Assembly: GCA_963817915.1 (NCBI GenBank)
Contig: CAWFQL010000012.1
Span: 416,001 to 480,000, forward strand
Reading direction: 5' to 3'
Length of the DNA: 64,000 bases
DNA from: an uncultured candidate division Zixibacteria bacterium
GTDB lineage: Bacteria; Zixibacteria; MSB-5A5; UBA10806
Shown here: positions 10,158-19,622 of the stretch, piece after piece
Position numbering within the stretch: the first letter of the stretch is position 1
Layout: each line of letters begins with the position of its first letter
Translations under genes and position numbers: made by a program
Notes under the pieces: generated by a model
Told to the model about the DNA's origin: nothing
Seen by the model: the letters and a program-made list of their open reading frames with translations, nothing else
Databases searched by the model: none

Positions 10158-10475
10158 TTATTCCACTCTGCTAACCTTGGGTTTGATATTCATATTCGGA
10201 GCTACAACCGACCGAATAGCAGGGCTATCGTTGAAGCCGGGATTCGGCGGAGCTAATTGACCCATAGGAGGGCAGCTTGGACAGGGAACTGGCAAATCCC
10301 CTCCCTTGAAGTAGTTTACCATATAGGTTATGTCCAAACCATTAAAGCTGCAACTTCCATTGACATCTCCCGGCGCGTAAAAAGGACGAAGCTGTCCTTC
10401 GCCAGAAACTTCATAGTAAATGCATGCCCCATTTATCTCCATAAATCCGTCAATATATTTCCCGCTATTTTTCAT
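10158..10475 (-). pseudogene. Chimeric remnant: alpha/beta-hydrolase N-terminus fused to a dockerin-like C-terminus
   Basis: INGACIYYEVSGEGQ (hydrolase start) joined directly to GDVNGSCSFNGLDITYMVNYFKGG. Confidence 0.6.
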
Positions 10476-11616: not shown

Positions 11617-12285
11617 TTATCTCGCCGATGGGCAATCCGAGCAAGGCTCGGGCGCAGGGCCACCCTTGAAGTAATTGACTAAATATGTTACGTCGAGGCC
11701 GTTAAATGAGCATGAATTATTCACATCGCCCGCGACAAACCAGCTATTATCGGGAGTGCATTCACACATATAGGGAGGAGGATCGCCTCCCTTGAAGAAA
11801 TTGACAGAGTAGGTGGCGTCGAGACCATTCAACGTACCGCTATTATTTGCATCGCCTACAACATACCTGCAGCTTGCGAAATACGCGGTGTCGGATATTA
11901 CCGATATGGATGTATCACTGAGAACCGAAATCGCTCTAATTGAGAATACTGCCCAATCGCCCGGCGATGATAAAATAACCGAACTGTCGCAGCGGGCATC
12001 AGATGGGGAGACCCCCGTGAGCGAATCACTTACACTAATGATTATATATGACCAAATATACGATTGAACCGTATTTCCATAACCTGGAGGAGACCAGTAA
12101 ATTTTTAGATGCCCATCGCTATCATCATAGCGGGCAAATGCGTTTTCCATAAGGCATAAAAGAGAAATGGCCATGATGATGATCATAAACACTGGTTTCA
12201 GGATTCTGTAAAGTTTCGTATTCTGTTTTTGACTTATCACAACTGGCCAATCAAGAAGATTGTAATTTGCCCTAAGTTTCTGCAT
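11617..12285 (-). CDS. Secreted protein: FN3-like domain lacking strand A plus a dockerin-like double Ca-binding repeat
   Basis: Signal peptide ending AFA; GHLKIYWSPP..YIWSY..GDWAVFSIRAIS; two GD(A/V)NNS..NGLD.TY.VN.FKGG repeats. Start codon uncertain. Confidence 0.75.
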   Translation of the reverse strand: MQKLRANYNLLDWPVVISQKQNTKLYRILKPVFMIIIMAISLLCLMENAFARYDDSDGHLKIYWSPPGYGNTVQSYIWSYIIISVSDSLTGVSPSDARCDSSVILSSPGDWAVFSIRAISVLSDTSISVISDTAYFASCRYVVGDANNSGTLNGLDATYSVNFFKGGDPPPYMCECTPDNSWFVAGDVNNSCSFNGLDVTYLVNYFKGGPAPEPCSDCPSAR

Positions 12286-12586
12286 TTACATTTGCCTTAA
12301 GGCGCTCTTAAGACAATATAAATAGCCAGAATCTACAGTCAATATCATTATGAATATCGGCAGTGACTGGGATTTTAAGAATATGTAAATAGTGCCAGGC
12401 AAGTTCGGGCTCCAAATCACTACGGACAATCGATTTAGATATTGGTGGATAAACGTCAAACATGCAAATCCGTGCGCATTTTATCTCGAATTCGCGAGTA
12501 AATGCCTGCTTTATCTCTTGCGTCTAAATTGAGTTTGATTATATTAGATATCGAATGTCGGCTTCTATTTATTTGAAAGGAGGCAA

Positions 12587-12964
12587 ATGAAATTAACGAT
12601 TGTATTAGCTTTGTTGGTAGTCATTATTGGGCTCACACCGCTAGTAGCGTTGGCACAATTTAATGATCATGACGGACATTTGGTTGTTAGCTGGCAGCCA
12701 CCCGCCTATGGCAACCCACTCGACCATTACATTTGGTCATATACAATTAACGGTGTAGTCGATTCAGTTACCGGGACTTCTGCCGGCGTTGACACGCTAA
12801 ATAACTCCGTAACCTTGACTGCGATAGGCGATTGGGCGGTTTTTCATATTCGTGCAGTTTCTACGGTCAATGATACTTCAACCGTAGCTTATTCTGATAC
12901 CGCCTTCTATAATACGGGAGAAGGAATAGGCCCTCCGAGGGGGGTGACCTGGCAGGGCCCGTAG
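12587..12964 (+). CDS. Small secreted FN3-like protein with C-terminal GIGPPRGVTW strand
   Basis: Strong AAGGAGG RBS; signal peptide ending ALA; paralog of the 11617-12285 domain. Confidence 0.8.
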   Translation: MKLTIVLALLVVIIGLTPLVALAQFNDHDGHLVVSWQPPAYGNPLDHYIWSYTINGVVDSVTGTSAGVDTLNNSVTLTAIGDWAVFHIRAVSTVNDTSTVAYSDTAFYNTGEGIGPPRGVTWQGP

Positions 12965-13221
12965 CCTTTGAGCTGCAGGCTCACCCCAATCCTACCAATA
13001 AATCGGGCCTTGTTTTAAGTTGGCAGGTTGAAAAAGAAAGTATCTATGATATCACGATTTATGATATTTTGGGCCGAAAAATTAAGACACTTCTCAAGCA
13101 GACAATGCCATCGGGTTTCTACAGTCAGCGGGCCGGCGAGGGTCTCGCGGCAGGCATCTATTTCGCTGTTATTTCTCGTCCTGACAATCACAGGGTTGTC
13201 AAGTTCACAGTCATTCGCTGA
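12943..13221 (+). CDS. T9SS type-A-like C-terminal sorting domain in the -1 frame of the 12587 gene, with no start or RBS of its own
   Basis: Translates GDLAGPVAFELQAHPNPTNKSGLVLSWQVEKESIYDITIYDILGRKIKTLLKQTMPSGFYSQRAGEGLAAGIYFAVISRPDNHRVVKFTVIR*; frame open from 12913. Confidence 0.75.
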   Translation, partial: GDLAGPVAFELQAHPNPTNKSGLVLSWQVEKESIYDITIYDILGRKIKTLLKQTMPSGFYSQRAGEGLAAGIYFAVISRPDNHRVVKFTVIR

Positions 13222-13624
13222 TGATGGCATAGCGTTCCCCGATACAGCAAGGGTATCATTTACGAGAACAATCGCAAACGATACTGTCATCATAACATTC
13301 AATAATTTATCCTCCGATTCGGTGAGGAATTTCTTTTTGTCCGATTTTACTGACTCGCAAGTTGTCGAGATTGAATGTCTGGTGGATAATGCTCCATGCG
13401 GTAATCTTGTTGTTGAACGGGAGTTTAATAGTGTTTATGCTGGAAAATTTTCGACCCGCTGGACTATGGGGGGCTTCCTTCATACTGCTTATTTGAAATT
13501 TTTCTCTGAAAGTTATTCGAGTAATGAACTCAGTTGGAGCGCCGGCCATCCTTATGCTATTTTTGGAACGATGTCGACCAATATCGGCATAGGCCCTCCC
13601 CGCGATTTACACTGGGAACAATAG
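13061..13624 (+). CDS. Secreted hypothetical protein ending in GIGPPRDLHWEQ
   Basis: Open frame 13028-13624; hydrophobic signal-like segment ending SQSFA; C-terminal motif shared with the 12587 protein. Start uncertain. Confidence 0.65.
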   Translation: MIFWAEKLRHFSSRQCHRVSTVSGPARVSRQASISLLFLVLTITGLSSSQSFADDGIAFPDTARVSFTRTIANDTVIITFNNLSSDSVRNFFLSDFTDSQVVEIECLVDNAPCGNLVVEREFNSVYAGKFSTRWTMGGFLHTAYLKFFSESYSSNELSWSAGHPYAIFGTMSTNIGIGPPRDLHWEQ

Positions 13625-13635
13625 AGGAAATGGTA

Positions 13636-14979
13636 ATGAAGCATATAGACCGTCGCAAATTTATAGGGGATGTTGGCAAGTTGGCCGGTGGGGCATTAAT
13701 GGGCGGCTATATACTGGATTCAGCGCTATTTTCCGCAGAACGGGCTAATGCAGCTTTAAGAAGCTATATATATTTGGCGAAAAACGGAACACCCGCCCAG
13801 AACGTTGCCAAGGTTTTCGAGATGCGTTTTGGAGGGATTGAAAATTTCATTGGGGCTGATGATGTAGTTGTTATCAATCCGAATGGGCAATGGCCAAATC
13901 AAGGCGGATCCAACTGTGCCTGTTGCATGGGGCTAATAGATCTTATTCTTGATCGGCCCGGCGGATTTAATGGCGAAATTATTTTTACCGAAAATACGCA
14001 GGGCTCGACTACTGGTTATTGGACCGCTTCCGGTGGCGAATTGCTTAGGAATGGACCATATAATTTCAATGACATGATCACTCATTATCACAATAATAGC
14101 CATCTGAATGTAAGCGGAGTACGGATAAGGAATAATCAATATGATGCCGCAAATTGGCCGATAATCAATGGCCCCGCCCAAGGGCAAGGATGGATCAGGC
14201 CGGAGTGGCAATCACAGACATATAGTTGCCTTTTTTACTTGCCATATCCTATTATTCGATCCCCCTACTCTAATAAGCTCATCGATTTGAAGAACGGCAT
14301 TTATGACAATGGCTATGATGGACAACCAGGTTTGAAATTTATAAAAATGCCAAATTTAAATAACCATGGCTATAATGGAAACCAGGACTATGCAGGTGTC
14401 ACAAGCGCAATCAAATCCTTTCTGGGGATAACTGAATTAGAGAATGGCACTGGCTCTTATTTCAATGATGGTGTTCATGCCAATATGCATGCCTATCACG
14501 CCAACGGCTGTTCCGGCAACGAACCTCAAAAGGCATTTTTGGCTGGAGAGGCGATCGGCGCTTGGATGAATCATTGCCGAAAACCCGATCTATTCTTAAC
14601 TACAGCCGAATGGGTAGGATGGGAATCTAGGACCGGTTCGGGCGCCAGTCAAGTTCGTACGGTTGGAATTGCCGAAGATCCTGTTTCTCTGGATTATTTT
14701 ATGAGTAAATATGTGTTATTGCCGAGCCATCCCCAATCACAATACTTTGATCCAGGCTTTGATATCTCGAACAATACGACCAGGCAGACACTCAATGGAT
14801 GTAATTCAATGGGGTACGGGACTGTGAATGAACAGGAAATGGCGGCGTATGTATACGATTTCAATTCGCCTTCAACATTCCGATTTGATATAGACCGAAT
14901 GATTAGAAAATTCAAATCTGGTGAAGCCACCCAACAGGACGTTTTGAATTTAATTGAAATGTATAATTCCGGTAATTAA
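13636..14979 (+). CDS. Tat-exported DUF362-like protein
   Basis: DRRKFIG twin-arginine signal; DDVVVINPNGQW, IKMPNLNNH..AGVTSAIKSFLG, DPVSLDY. Confidence 0.7.
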   Translation: MKHIDRRKFIGDVGKLAGGALMGGYILDSALFSAERANAALRSYIYLAKNGTPAQNVAKVFEMRFGGIENFIGADDVVVINPNGQWPNQGGSNCACCMGLIDLILDRPGGFNGEIIFTENTQGSTTGYWTASGGELLRNGPYNFNDMITHYHNNSHLNVSGVRIRNNQYDAANWPIINGPAQGQGWIRPEWQSQTYSCLFYLPYPIIRSPYSNKLIDLKNGIYDNGYDGQPGLKFIKMPNLNNHGYNGNQDYAGVTSAIKSFLGITELENGTGSYFNDGVHANMHAYHANGCSGNEPQKAFLAGEAIGAWMNHCRKPDLFLTTAEWVGWESRTGSGASQVRTVGIAEDPVSLDYFMSKYVLLPSHPQSQYFDPGFDISNNTTRQTLNGCNSMGYGTVNEQEMAAYVYDFNSPSTFRFDIDRMIRKFKSGEATQQDVLNLIEMYNSGN

Positions 14980-16059: not shown

Positions 16060-19000
16060 TCAACGAATGACTACTATTTTCCCTTGCGTAGTGCCGCCGC
16101 CGTAATCCACAACGTAAAGGTACACGCCAGAAGCCAGTTGGCGGCCCTTATCATTTCTGACATCCCAGACCCATTCCAATGGACCGATATCCGCAACGTT
16201 TCTGACCACATCGCCTGAGACAGTGGCGATGGTAATTTTTGATTTTTCGGGTAGATTCGTGAAGGTTATTCCGGGAAGCCCCTCGGACGCGCGGAATGGA
16301 ATCGGGTAAGCGTGAATATCCAGTACGGCTGAGAATGCTATTGGAGCAGTCCATAGCATGTTGTCGGAGCTTGCCCTCCAATAAAACGAACCATTTTTAT
16401 CAAGAGGATTCGTTGGTCGCCAAGAAATCGGCGATATGCCATCGGCGAAAATAGGGCCCGATTGAATCGGCGATGAAAAATCAATACTACTATCGACTTC
16501 AAAATAAACGATTGCCAAACCAGAGATATACCTGACCGTGAACGTCGGTCTATTAGACACAATTTGAGCGCCGGCAATAGGAGCTATACAATCGGCGCTT
16601 GTTAACGGCTGATTTATATCTGTTGTCATTAAATTGAAGCTTATGACCGGCGACCAGCCGCTGGAATCGGGGCCATCGTTCGATTTTGCCCGGCATTTCC
16701 AGTAGTAGGTAGTTCTCTGTGAGAGGCTGTCAAAAATAAAATCGGCGACTGTATCGGCAGATAATTCCTGCTCCAATCGAGGATTGGGGAAACTATATAC
16801 AGAATCCAATGCGAATTCGTAGAAGATATTCCTATATGATTCTACCAACGAGGCAACTACTGTCGCCGCATGAGCGGTAGTATCTATTAATGTTCTAATT
16901 TGCTCCGGCACTATTATTCCGCTCGAAAACGTATCTATAACAGCCTCAGGCGAGGCGTTGCCGACCTCATCGTAAGCCCGGATCGCGACAAAATATCTTT
17001 CACCCGGTGTCAAGCCATCTACAATACATACTTGCGGTGAATCAGCGGGTGCGGGTGCCGGTATTGATCCATTAAAGAACGACGCCATATTCCAATCAAA
17101 TGCGCTGCCGGTATCTGGCATATATTTTATTAAATAAGCGGTTGCTGTTCCGGACGTACTGTCATCTCCCGGAGCATTCCAATGTAACTCGATTGACCCA
17201 TGGCCATTGTATGGTTGGCCACGATAATTTGATGGCGCTGAAGGCGCTGTTGTATCCTGACCCGCCTCGGTTCCATATATTTCCATCTCGGTAAGCCAGA
17301 TAACCGTGGGATAAGAAGTTGGTCCCATATTGGGAGTTTGATAATATCTGATGCGACTCGTTACTCTTGGTTCGAACCAGGTAGTCGAAGTGCTGTCGAC
17401 AACCGAATTATTGACCGTATCAATATCCGCGAAAGCCCCGGTGGTTTCATTCCAATATTGTATCCTATACTGTCTCGAACACATCCAATAAGAGCTGTTC
17501 CAGGCCCAGTATATTTTCAAGCCCATAACTGAAACTCGTCGACCAAAATTAAATTGCACCCAATGCGGCAGCAAAGCGCTTTCGGCCGATGCCCAAGTAG
17601 TGAGAGTGCCGCCGCGGGGATTAACAACTGAATCGTTAATGCGAGCAATTGAATATCCGGCATATGAGCTATCAACTGTGGGCGTGATGCCTATGGCTAA
17701 ATCCGTATAAGCAACCGACGTATCCGTATGGAATTGATAATCGATACTTACCGCTTCATTATTTGATGCATCTTTGGAGCGAACTCGGAAATGATAGATC
17801 GTATCCGCAATAAGCCCGCTAAGATTCACCGAATGGCTCAACGTCAGCGAGGGGTTGAGGGCAGTCGTTGAATCATATCCGGTGGTCAAGCCGTAATTAA
17901 CCTGACTTGTAGCCAATTCATTTGTATTCCAATTGATTGTTGCGGCATGATCTGTGATATTGCCGGAGCCAACATTACTCAATGTCGGAGGAGTTGTATC
18001 CGGTAATGCGATATAATTCTGCCCCGAGCTATTGGAATTCACTCCGCTATAGCTTCTTGACGCCGGCGAAAATGTGTAGCCATTCAAAACAGGTGTAGCG
18101 GTACCCGACCAGTTGGAATCTATGGTTGCTGTATAGTTGCCGCTGCCATTTGTTGTGGGATTTCCGGGCAAGCCATTTATAGCCACTCCCGCCAAACCGT
18201 TGCCCGCGAGTGTAACCGTGCCCGAAATTGTGTAAGTAACCAGATTCGGCGCCAGGGCACCCATATAAGTCGGATAAGCCCCACCGCGCCCTCCGGTTTT
18301 GACCGCTGACGGCGACCCGGCCGTTAGGTGAAAATCGTGATTGACAGGATCTGCGAAGAGGGGATTGACGTTGACCGAGTTGCTATCATAGTGAATATTG
18401 GCAATGAAATTTGGCAAATTATAAGCCGTGCCGTTCCAAGAAGCAAAATTACTTGAGCCCGAATTCCAATAGCAGTTAAAATTTCCATATAGATTTTGAA
18501 CTATTCGGGCGGTGGGTTTCGTAAATCCATAGGAGGATTGTAAGACAATATTATTGAATATCTGCGGGGTTATTAATGGCTCGTCCTCGCCAGCGGCATA
18601 ACGAGAATATATTCCATTTCCCACATTGTAAATTGTATTATTATATACCGAATTCCCGATATTAGTGTATTGCGGTCTAGTGCCGTGGTTAAGCGTCCCA
18701 GGTTCTAGGTTAATGCCGTCTCCACAATTGTAAATGATGTTATTGCGAATTGTATTGCTATCGCAATCATAAAAGGCGGTGATACCCCTCGCCCCTATAT
18801 CATGTATTATATTATTACTGATTGTATTGTGGCTGTTTGTTTGTTTTAGGAAAATCCCACCATCGCAAGATCCGCCCGGTTCGTTGAAAACAAAATTGCC
18901 TGTAATCGTGGAATTTCGCAAATAATAGAAAAGCATACCGGCATGATTTACCCAAGTGCTATCAAATGTCTCATAATTGGCAAAGGAACTGCAAGCTTGA

Positions 19001-19566
19001 ATCGTCCAATAATCTTTATATTCTTCTAATCCAAGCAGGATAATACCGCCGTTGTTAGAGTCCCGGCTAACTCCACCCGTTGAATCAATGACACAATTCT
19101 TGATGGTAATATAGCTTGATATGCCCCAGCTTGCTATTCCTCTGGAAGTTTTCTTCTGCACTAAAGAATCAAACACGATGTCATGGATATAGTGATTAAA
19201 AATAAGAATACCATAACTACTATAATCTGCACCGACCGTTGTAATGATTGGTCTCGGATACGCCGAATGAGCTTTGTAGACAATGGGATGACCCGGTGTT
19301 CCGCTATTAATGGGAACAAGCGTTCCGTGCGCTCCGCTTTCGCCCCAACCCGGCGTAGCATGAGATTCTCTCCACGTTCCACCCATGATTAGCAATGTAT
19401 CGTTAGCCACGAGGGTGCTACAGGCATGACCTAATGTTAACCACTCATGTGTAGTGTCAATACCGGAATAGCTATTATTGCCATGGTTGCTCACGTAATA
19501 TGTACCGCCGTAAGCTAAGCCTGGAATTAGAATCAACATCATTATTATAGAAAGTCTGCGAATCAT
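16060..19566 (-). CDS. Large secreted/surface protein: right-handed beta-helix, Ig-like, FN3, discoidin-like and FN3 domains, T9SS-type C-terminal domain
   Basis: Signal peptide; TYYVS..GNN, NNII/NNTI repeats, DFHL; DTTPP FN3 repeats; AYPIPF..LASGVYLY..KIVVIR end; GGAGG RBS before ATG 19566. Confidence 0.85.
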   Translation of the reverse strand: MIRRLSIIMMLILIPGLAYGGTYYVSNHGNNSYSGIDTTHEWLTLGHACSTLVANDTLLIMGGTWRESHATPGWGESGAHGTLVPINSGTPGHPIVYKAHSAYPRPIITTVGADYSSYGILIFNHYIHDIVFDSLVQKKTSRGIASWGISSYITIKNCVIDSTGGVSRDSNNGGIILLGLEEYKDYWTIQACSSFANYETFDSTWVNHAGMLFYYLRNSTITGNFVFNEPGGSCDGGIFLKQTNSHNTISNNIIHDIGARGITAFYDCDSNTIRNNIIYNCGDGINLEPGTLNHGTRPQYTNIGNSVYNNTIYNVGNGIYSRYAAGEDEPLITPQIFNNIVLQSSYGFTKPTARIVQNLYGNFNCYWNSGSSNFASWNGTAYNLPNFIANIHYDSNSVNVNPLFADPVNHDFHLTAGSPSAVKTGGRGGAYPTYMGALAPNLVTYTISGTVTLAGNGLAGVAINGLPGNPTTNGSGNYTATIDSNWSGTATPVLNGYTFSPASRSYSGVNSNSSGQNYIALPDTTPPTLSNVGSGNITDHAATINWNTNELATSQVNYGLTTGYDSTTALNPSLTLSHSVNLSGLIADTIYHFRVRSKDASNNEAVSIDYQFHTDTSVAYTDLAIGITPTVDSSYAGYSIARINDSVVNPRGGTLTTWASAESALLPHWVQFNFGRRVSVMGLKIYWAWNSSYWMCSRQYRIQYWNETTGAFADIDTVNNSVVDSTSTTWFEPRVTSRIRYYQTPNMGPTSYPTVIWLTEMEIYGTEAGQDTTAPSAPSNYRGQPYNGHGSIELHWNAPGDDSTSGTATAYLIKYMPDTGSAFDWNMASFFNGSIPAPAPADSPQVCIVDGLTPGERYFVAIRAYDEVGNASPEAVIDTFSSGIIVPEQIRTLIDTTAHAATVVASLVESYRNIFYEFALDSVYSFPNPRLEQELSADTVADFIFDSLSQRTTYYWKCRAKSNDGPDSSGWSPVISFNLMTTDINQPLTSADCIAPIAGAQIVSNRPTFTVRYISGLAIVYFEVDSSIDFSSPIQSGPIFADGISPISWRPTNPLDKNGSFYWRASSDNMLWTAPIAFSAVLDIHAYPIPFRASEGLPGITFTNLPEKSKITIATVSGDVVRNVADIGPLEWVWDVRNDKGRQLASGVYLYVVDYGGGTTQGKIVVIR

Positions 19567-19622
19567 GGTTGTGCCTCCATCTTTCATATCGAAAATCTAC
19601 TATATCTTATATCGTCTATAAA

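Follow-up and report, generated by a model that had tools for sequence, protein, structure and literature searches.

In a window of 64,000 nucleotides, the whole stretch of DNA analysed here, from an uncultured candidate division Zixibacteria bacterium (contig CAWFQL010000012.1, positions 416,001 to 480,000), three genes designated A, B and C appear to belong to one system. Gene A (12587-12964, plus strand, in the list of open reading frames, ORFs; 125 amino acids, with AAGGAGG 5 nt before its ATG) is followed in the -1 frame by a T9SS (type IX secretion system) sorting domain, and sequence comparison indicates that programmed -1 recoding at the stop codon of A probably gives two products, an untagged A and a T9SS-anchored A that carries the C-terminal sorting domain (CTD). 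The short C-terminal tail of A recurs on B, and the chances are about even that such tails complete the acceptor domain of a second molecule and so tether B (in this clade further A as well) to an anchored acceptor. The same balanced judgement applies to the view that the locus encodes a surface system in two parts, with a split FN3 fold as its basis; a fibre as the result is unlikely. A check of ORFs and sequences gives A, B and C and their termini as the initial annotation had described them.

The sorting domain (12958..13221, plus strand, ending ...VVKFTVIR before TGA) is of T9SS type A and exceeds both curated cut-offs, with 32.3 bits for TIGR04183 (cut-off 23) and 28.7 bits for PF18962 (cut-off 27). 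T9SS machinery is found in the genome, namely SprA (741.7 bits summed) and PorU (688.1 bits), together with at least 150 sorting domains; PorV-like matches in this genome all lie below the cut-off. Loci for comparison came from 12 of 285 genomes of the phylum that possess an A relative, the same 12 being returned by profile and by single-protein searches, and from seven metagenome loci. Eleven of the loci hold the short form of A and represent eight distinct lineages (L014 equals L003 where compared, L016 is near L015, and L019 is near L005). In all 11 an open sorting domain of 85-86 codons lies in the -1 frame directly past the stop of A and begins P-V/I-A-F/L-x-L-x-x-H/Y-P-N-P, and in 9/9 loci no ATG, GTG or TTG is present in the CTD frame upstream of the domain. 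The ratio of nonsynonymous to synonymous differences (pN/pS), taken over 28 pairs of 8 sequences with L014, L016 and L019 left out, comes in the CTD frame to 0.39 over codons 1-45 and to 0.43 from codon 46 onward; in the other two frames it is 0.91 and 1.16 for the first part, and 0.93 and 1.61 for the second. Diversity at the three codon positions of the CTD frame is 0.36, 0.22 and 0.53. The sorting domain is under purifying selection, as is looked for in the startless downstream frame of a -1 frameshift, and from this selection and the lack of an upstream start codon we infer that it is translated and can be reached from A alone. The proposed shift would be needed to bring it into frame with the signal peptide of A. 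The A proteins of a sister clade are in-frame fusions with the CTD, signal peptide included, and lack the tail.

A frame break of this kind might also be an inherited lesion or an assembly error, the gene being a decaying CTD fusion with a short product or none. Other sorting domains of this genome (G000) are indeed broken by internal frame changes (C17:468077, C11:1606, C12:6832 and C16:392782) and could be pseudogenes or assembly indels, so that a single break at A alone would mean little, and in-frame A-CTD relatives exist (P0032, P0033, P0040, P0042). The GGC CCR TAG junction of A is seen at none of the other frame-broken sorting domains of the genome, which are internal breaks or ordinary genes. 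Against a lesion, the same stop stands at the same place in 31/31 short proteins of many sources and in 11/11 loci, and the CTD frame is open and under purifying selection within the clade, with an invariant junction. A lesion or assembly error is already disfavoured and is considered highly improbable. The initial annotation had named as contrary to its proposal an A that always reads into the sorting domain; a separate short stop of A is found in 31/31 homologs, but the sorting domain would still be reached, by way of the conserved -1 shift.

The proposed recoding site is GGC CCG TAG C (12956..12965, plus strand). When tRNA-Pro sits on CCR in the P site while UAG fills the A site, it would re-pair one base back on CCC (12958-12960 in the window), after which translation would run into the 86-codon T9SS sorting domain, and one gene would thereby give two products, untagged A and T9SS-targeted A-CTD. 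GGC CCR TAG C is invariant in 11/11 short-form loci; in every one of them the Gly codon ends in C, and the stop is always TAG followed by C. It is this invariant C that supplies the CCC on which tRNA-Pro could re-pair, and C_CCR permits such re-pairing of the P-site tRNA in 11/11 loci. The variable sites of the tail (ATA/ATC/ATT, GTG/GTA, CAG/CAA and CCG/CCA) are synonymous in the frame of A and residue-changing in the -1 frame, which argues that the frame of A is read up to the stop and hence that the frame change must fall at C_CCR_TAG. Amongst conserved four-fold codons the third base is invariant at 4/7 in the tail (GGC, CCT, GGG, GGC) and at 0/10 in the body of A (Fisher one-sided p ~0.015, calculated by hand on related sequences), and third-position diversity is 0.28 in the tail vs 0.62 in the body. 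Two other sites or modes of slippage were considered and rejected: a slip at the G run (AGG GGG GTG) as the main site, since L003 has CGT GGG and the variants downstream are synonymous in the frame of A and not in the -1 frame, and transcriptional slippage, since the junction has no homopolymer.

Analysis of nine loci with RNAalifold places the TAG stop within a hairpin (12961..12976, plus strand; 6 bp in the consensus), whose loop is UUCG in 6/9 loci; the window has UUUG instead, L006 UUUC and L017 UUAG. Around it an outer helix of 10 bp (12941..12987, plus strand; likewise from RNAalifold) pairs GGGGUGACCU (12941-12950) with GGCUCACCCC (12978-12987); its first arm, GGGGUGAMCU, is also Shine-Dalgarno-like, and the second belongs to the sequence encoding ...HP of the CTD. 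Compensatory changes are seen at one pair of the hairpin (3 sequences) and at two pairs of the outer helix. In the consensus structure 96.6% of cells are paired, vs 27-56% with the partners slid, and the covariation score is 0.107 vs 0.076, a value reached by 3/500 shuffles. No RNA run with the A locus is listed among public sequencing runs, and a soil DNA run gives a 162-nt contig that covers 12600-12761 only.

The same structure would suit a short bypass, in which peptidyl-tRNA-Pro takes off at CCR-UAG and lands on the HPNP codon CCC, which lies 23 nt downstream and also belongs to the CTD frame. The UAG lies beside the P-site codon within a small hairpin, with a UUCG loop in 6/9 loci, which is the layout given for the take-off site of T4 gene 60 (PMC5462505), and the landing CCC is invariant and sits in the 3' arm of the outer helix. 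The 8 codons that would be skipped, however, keep the F-x-L-x-x-H/Y pattern which precedes PNP in in-frame relatives, and across 8 lineages they are free of indels and vary synonymously in the CTD frame, a weak test as these codons are also constrained by RNA pairing. On account of the kept pattern and the synonymous changes, the -1 slip is ranked above the hop, which we regard as improbable.

The untagged product of A begins with a signal peptide of 23 amino acids (12587..12655, plus strand; cleavage at ALA|QF was judged by eye, and the structure model has a helix at 3-24). It is followed by an FN3-like domain, the proposed acceptor (12656..12922, plus strand), which comprises strands B to G only by the Pfam match, AlphaFold2, Foldseek and the collinearity with tandem FN3 proteins described below. 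The Pfam fn3 model matches residues 31-102 with its positions 15-77 of 84 (E 0.0076; 16.9 bits, below the cut-off of 25 bits). An AlphaFold2 model from 33 sequences (mean predicted local distance difference test, pLDDT, 72.5) has six strands, at residues 30-32, 45-54, 57-66, 75-77, 84-92 and 97-102, the first one at residue 30. All matches listed by Foldseek for this model are FN3 domains, the best with E 0.012 and none reaching E 0.001. From the start of the Pfam match, the modelled strands and the Foldseek matches, the domain is predicted to be FN3-like and to begin at strand B, a fold without one strand. An acceptor devoid of strand A had been proposed in the initial annotation, and it agrees with an fn3 match that starts at model position 15 and with the absence of any model strand before residue 30. 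Residues 105-125 have pLDDT <50 in the monomer model, in which the tail is neither ordered nor inserted into its own domain.

The tail of A, GIGPPRGVTWQGP (12923..12961, plus strand, followed by TAG), is strand-A-like and holds recoding signals as well. It includes the GIGPPRGVTW that had been quoted as the terminus, although the full end is three residues longer. A and B share the pattern G-I-G-P-P-x-x-[VL]-x-W, a recurrence beyond chance, as GIGPPR is found at no third place in the six-frame translation of the genome. A word-indexed search with A returned 33 proteins, 31 of 109-140 amino acids and the other two of 211 and 202; one homolog is labelled candidate division Zixibacteria in its source. 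I[GNS]PPxxxxW is present in 31/31 of the short homologs, with the stop 1-4 residues after W, and 29/31 end in GP, while the two long ones are in-frame fusions to PF18962 and have no tail. More distant relatives were sought by a profile search of 1.84 billion representatives, which gave 100 hits, 32 of them of 114-147 amino acids and all 32 examined. In 27/32 of these distant short forms xPPxxxxW stands near the end, the exceptions being P0077 (F for W) and P0076, P0078, P0100 and P0116 (without the W tail); 21/32 end 1-4 residues past W, mostly in WK, WE or WTD without GP. P116, P117 and W122 are amongst the few nearly invariant columns of the A family at 28-47% identity, and the tail is one of the most conserved features of the family. 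Its conservation in homologs, on which the earlier proposal had been made to depend, holds in 31/31 close and 27/32 distant short forms and in 16/16 homologs of B. Single-protein scans of the genome contigs found no relatives of P0053 and P0054.

Longer relatives of A end either in an in-frame sorting domain (P0032, P0033, P0040, P0042) or in dockerin-like repeats (P0039, P0041, P0043-45, P0047, P0049, P0055). Amongst the profile-search hits examined none of the A relatives that end in a CTD or in dockerin-like repeats has the tail, and an in-frame form with tail plus CTD was seen in none of the A-profile hits.

Large tandem FN3 proteins are also matched by the A profile, and they suggest what the tail may be. 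In one of these, P0067 (3033 amino acids), the junctions between repeats read ...TVP-x-PPG-x-PRNL-x-A-(5-6 residues)-L-x-V-S-W. BLASTP aligns residues 29-121 of A with 1297-1384 of P0067, ungapped in that stretch (E 0.027), and sets GIGPPRGVT on VPGPPRNLS, which is strand A of the next repeat; the likeness of the tail to an FN3 strand A claimed earlier is borne out in this alignment. The collinearity with P0067 repeats indicates that A is one FN3 period cut in phase B-G-A'. Its tail would exit the domain as in the array, toward a next domain that is absent from the same chain, and for this reason could not fill its own domain. In its conservation and its collinearity with tandem FN3 proteins, the tail is a conserved terminal extension that matches the missing strand, as is expected of a donor strand.

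It is rather unlikely, though more credible than the other alternatives, that the tail is not a strand donor but a short signal by which other machinery (for instance a protease, transpeptidase or export shuttle) sorts or recognises the protein, the missing strand A being a trait of the subfamily. The tail is short and terminal, can stand in for a CTD or dockerin among the enzyme-like proteins discussed below, and is unstructured in the monomer models of both A and B. Against a signal, the tail fits the FN3 strand-A consensus, is collinear with strand A of the next repeat in arrays, and co-occurs specifically with a domain that misses exactly that strand; it is also found at an N-terminus (P0139), and no conserved candidate for a processing enzyme is present amongst the ORFs within about 1.5 kb. 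A strand donor that completes the acceptor of another molecule is the reading followed here.

Gene B (13046..13624, plus strand; mature protein 13220-13621) encodes a secreted beta-sandwich of ten strands. Its start is more likely ATG 13046 or 13061, TTG 13028 being merely the mechanical start of the ORF, and its signal-peptide-like stretch ends SQSFA|DDG. The structure model (pLDDT 85.4; predicted template modelling score, pTM, 0.79) is a ten-strand sandwich. Foldseek gives as its best match the cohesin-like module 2jh2 (E 5e-4), a weak likeness at a template modelling (TM) score of 0.38, and in VIA-align pilin and MSCRAMM immunoglobulin (Ig)-like domains rank above the cohesin-like module; Pfam and NCBIfam scans of B returned no family. 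The tail of B, GIGPPRDLHWEQ (13586..13621, plus strand, followed by TAG at 13622-24), is modelled as coil with block-mean pLDDT of 59-69. Insertion of the tail into its own protein, which had been named as an outcome contrary to the earlier proposal, is absent from the monomer models of both A and B.

Homologs of B lie directly downstream of the acceptor gene in 16/19 loci; L003/L014 have none, nor does L020, whose contig ends there. The acceptor that precedes B carries an anchor in 16/19 loci, including the dockerin-type locus L009, in which B comes after a dockerin-type acceptor and overlaps it by 4 nt. All homologs of B (16/16) retain the tail, with the stop exactly two residues after the aromatic position, which is W in 14/16 and Y in 2/16. 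Docking of B to the acceptor would be the conserved pairing. In L008 (G035, about 2076-2120) the B homolog is split over two frames near the end of the signal peptide, by a frameshift or an assembly error.

The codons of the B tail vary freely, all Gly and Pro codons being used, and this bears on a further alternative, in which the tail of A is a recoding cassette only, an arrest peptide with RNA signals and without docking, and the likeness of the B tail a relic of duplication. Synonymous sites are suppressed in the tail of A, as a cassette would have it, and termination is slow where UAG-C comes after Pro. The tail of B, however, is conserved as protein although its codons are chosen freely and no further frame lies downstream, and the 21/32 distant short forms that end 1-4 residues past W mostly do so without GP-stop. 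A cassette without docking is quite improbable, less so than an inherited lesion and more so than the bypass, and the tail is taken here as a candidate docking strand with recoding signals superimposed on it in A.

The 3' end of the sorting domain is dual-coding. Its last 30-60 codons (13046-13221 in the window) also encode, in a different frame, the start and signal peptide of B, and this overlap is kept in all CTD-type loci seen; over codons 46 to the end of the CTD, the CTD frame has a pN/pS of 0.43 and the frame of B one of 0.93.

In L003 (G246) and L014 (2050-2853) the body of B is replaced by a secreted protein of 268 amino acids that is rich in Cys, His and Trp and carries IGPPRNVSW right after the signal peptide. 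The enzyme-like family of this protein gave 2428 hits, many members of which end in a sorting domain or dockerin, and no family was returned for the protein by Pfam and NCBIfam. The tail motif is found in 2 of 120 listed hits of the family, at the N-terminus of P0139 and at the C-terminus of P0147, where it reads GIGPPRNVDWLQSH. Its presence on A, on B and occasionally on an unrelated enzyme-like protein suggests that the tail is a portable module, which appears to stand where anchoring modules otherwise stand.

Gene C (11617..12285, minus strand) encodes a signal peptide, an FN3-like domain without strand A and two dockerin-like repeats, and has no tail. Its domain is 47% identical to that of A, so that C does possess the same domain as A, as first described, and dockerin-like repeats at its end. 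These repeats match PF00404 over two stretches with 21.6 bits (E 2.5e-4), just below the cut-off of 22.9 bits, and C is therefore not assigned to dockerin type I at the Pfam cut-off. The initial annotation regarded C as the anchor; as A would itself read into the sorting domain by the conserved -1 shift, a trans-frame A-CTD is a likelier anchor than C alone.

Dockerin-like repeats are also encountered elsewhere. Those at C4:1997-2129 and C17:262905-264421 of G000 end ...NY[LY]KG[IL]GPPP, which resembles the tail start GIGPP. An ORF of 105 amino acids (10158-10475, minus strand) has one dockerin-like repeat (GDVNGSCSFNGLDITYMVNYFKGG; 14 bits for PF00404) and no obvious signal peptide, and may be a gene fragment. 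Further along the window, directly after B, lies a protein of 447 amino acids with a twin-arginine-type leader (MKHIDRRKFIG...; 13636-14979, plus strand), for which Pfam and NCBIfam gave nothing up to an E of 1. The window also has a T9SS cargo of 1175 amino acids (16060-19587, minus strand) with beta-helix, purple-acid-phosphatase-N-like, F5/8 type C, FN3 and sorting domains, the last at 23.4 bits for TIGR04183.

In the model proposed, A and C would be acceptors, as FN3 domains without strand A, and A and B donors, whose tails would be the missing strand. B, an Ig-like sandwich of pilin or adhesin type, would dock on an acceptor that is anchored by a T9SS CTD or a dockerin-like end, and in the clade of A, A could also chain head to tail. 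Head-to-tail polymerisation of A had been put forward as the function of the system; as the A of the sister clade is fused to the CTD and has no tail, it cannot be the universal one. That the Zixibacteria possess a fibre which is a tandem FN3 array held by strand-A exchange alone, with A as shaft, B as tip and A-CTD as base, is a doubtful extension of the model. Untagged A would then chain head to tail, B would cap the free acceptor end as an adhesin-like tip, and the base would be the rare trans-frame A-CTD made at the gene-60-like stop-codon hairpin. The efficiency of recoding would set the ratio of shaft to anchor and hence the length and number of fibres, and enzymes, too, would be tethered to the surface by this strand tag.

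Several points weigh against the recoding and docking proposed here. The shift itself, its efficiency and all binding are deduced from sequence, and no way of crossing the outer membrane is evident for untagged A or B. The canonical X_XXY_YYZ heptamer fits 4/9 loci (CAG GGC CCG), the other five having CAA, and the hairpin begins at the A-site codon and not 5-9 nt downstream as in classical -1 sites. The consensus structure was derived from the same alignment that was used for the pair counts, most pairs never vary, and single-sequence folding gives z-scores of -1.3 and -1.6, which are not significant; the loci are related, so that counts overstate their independence. For docking, the structure model of A is moderately confident only (pLDDT 72.5). 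The tail is borne by A and B alone in this genome: GIGPPR occurs twice in the six-frame translation of 3.33 Mb, in A and in B, and a looser tail pattern amongst 17,323 frames of >=60 amino acids recovers genes A and B and two unrelated short frames only. Finally, six distant short forms have 15-16 extra residues after the tail, which indicates that a free C-terminus is not required for it.

If the recoding is true, it is through a change of frame in a bacterial chromosomal gene that a protein does or does not acquire its tag for type IX secretion, the stop-codon hairpin recalls the otherwise near-unique site of T4 gene 60, and both the known uses of recoding and the known regulation of T9SS cargo are widened. 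If the docking is true, the locus holds a natural split FN3, a seven-strand fold shared by two polypeptides, whose tether is interchangeable with a CTD or dockerin; it would provide a new principle for the assembly of surface structures in an uncultured phylum, and a docking pair free of protein ligation. We know of no -1 frameshift that appends a T9SS sorting domain. A full-text literature search, with subscription journals outside its coverage, returned no recoding that appends such a domain, and among the listed titles and abstracts on donor-strand assembly none described an FN3 domain divided at strand A whose donor is C-terminal; a full-text search gave nothing on type IX secretion in Zixibacteria.

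As kinds of mechanism, donor-strand complementation and programmed frameshifting are both established, and the locus may be compared with several known systems. At the take-off site of T4 gene 60 the UAG directly follows the P-site codon and a small UUCG hairpin hinders release factor 1 (PMC5462505). The UAG of A likewise lies in a hairpin (UUCG in 6/9), and a conserved nascent peptide precedes the site in both. The two differ in that tRNA-Pro would re-pair by one base (CCR to CCC) instead of a 50-nt hop of tRNA-Gly, and in the bacterial host, the gene for a secreted protein and the outcome, an added sorting domain. Programmed -1 frameshifting gives two products from one gene in dnaX and in B. 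subtilis cdd. A resembles these in its two overlapping frames, conserved candidate shift site, upstream Shine-Dalgarno-like G run and shared N-terminal part, and differs in that 5/9 loci have no canonical heptamer, the shift is at the stop codon itself and the hairpin follows without a spacer. As a T9SS type A cargo, A has a CTD that passes both curated cut-offs in a genome with SprA and PorU; unlike such cargo, the CTD is out of frame with the N-terminal part that bears the signal peptide.

On the side of docking, the cohesin-dockerin system is alike in its modular docking to anchored partners, C and its relatives ending in dockerin-like repeats, although the dockerin match of C is below the Pfam cut-off and the cohesin likeness of B is weak (TM 0.38). 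Donor-strand filaments (chaperone-usher, type V FimA/Mfa1, TasA, archaeal threads and cannulae) are alike in that a strand from a neighbour completes an Ig-like fold and that tip or anchor subunits are donor-only or acceptor-only. They are unlike in fold, which here is FN3 with strand A missing and a C-terminal donor equal to strand A of the next array unit, and in equipment, as no chaperone, usher or activating protease is seen here, the anchors are a T9SS CTD or dockerin-like, and assembly is only presumed. Closest in sequence are the tandem FN3 arrays such as P0067, in which a repeat and its junction are collinear with strands B-G of A plus the tail; A differs in being a single unit in phase B-G-A', so that the link between units would be non-covalent.

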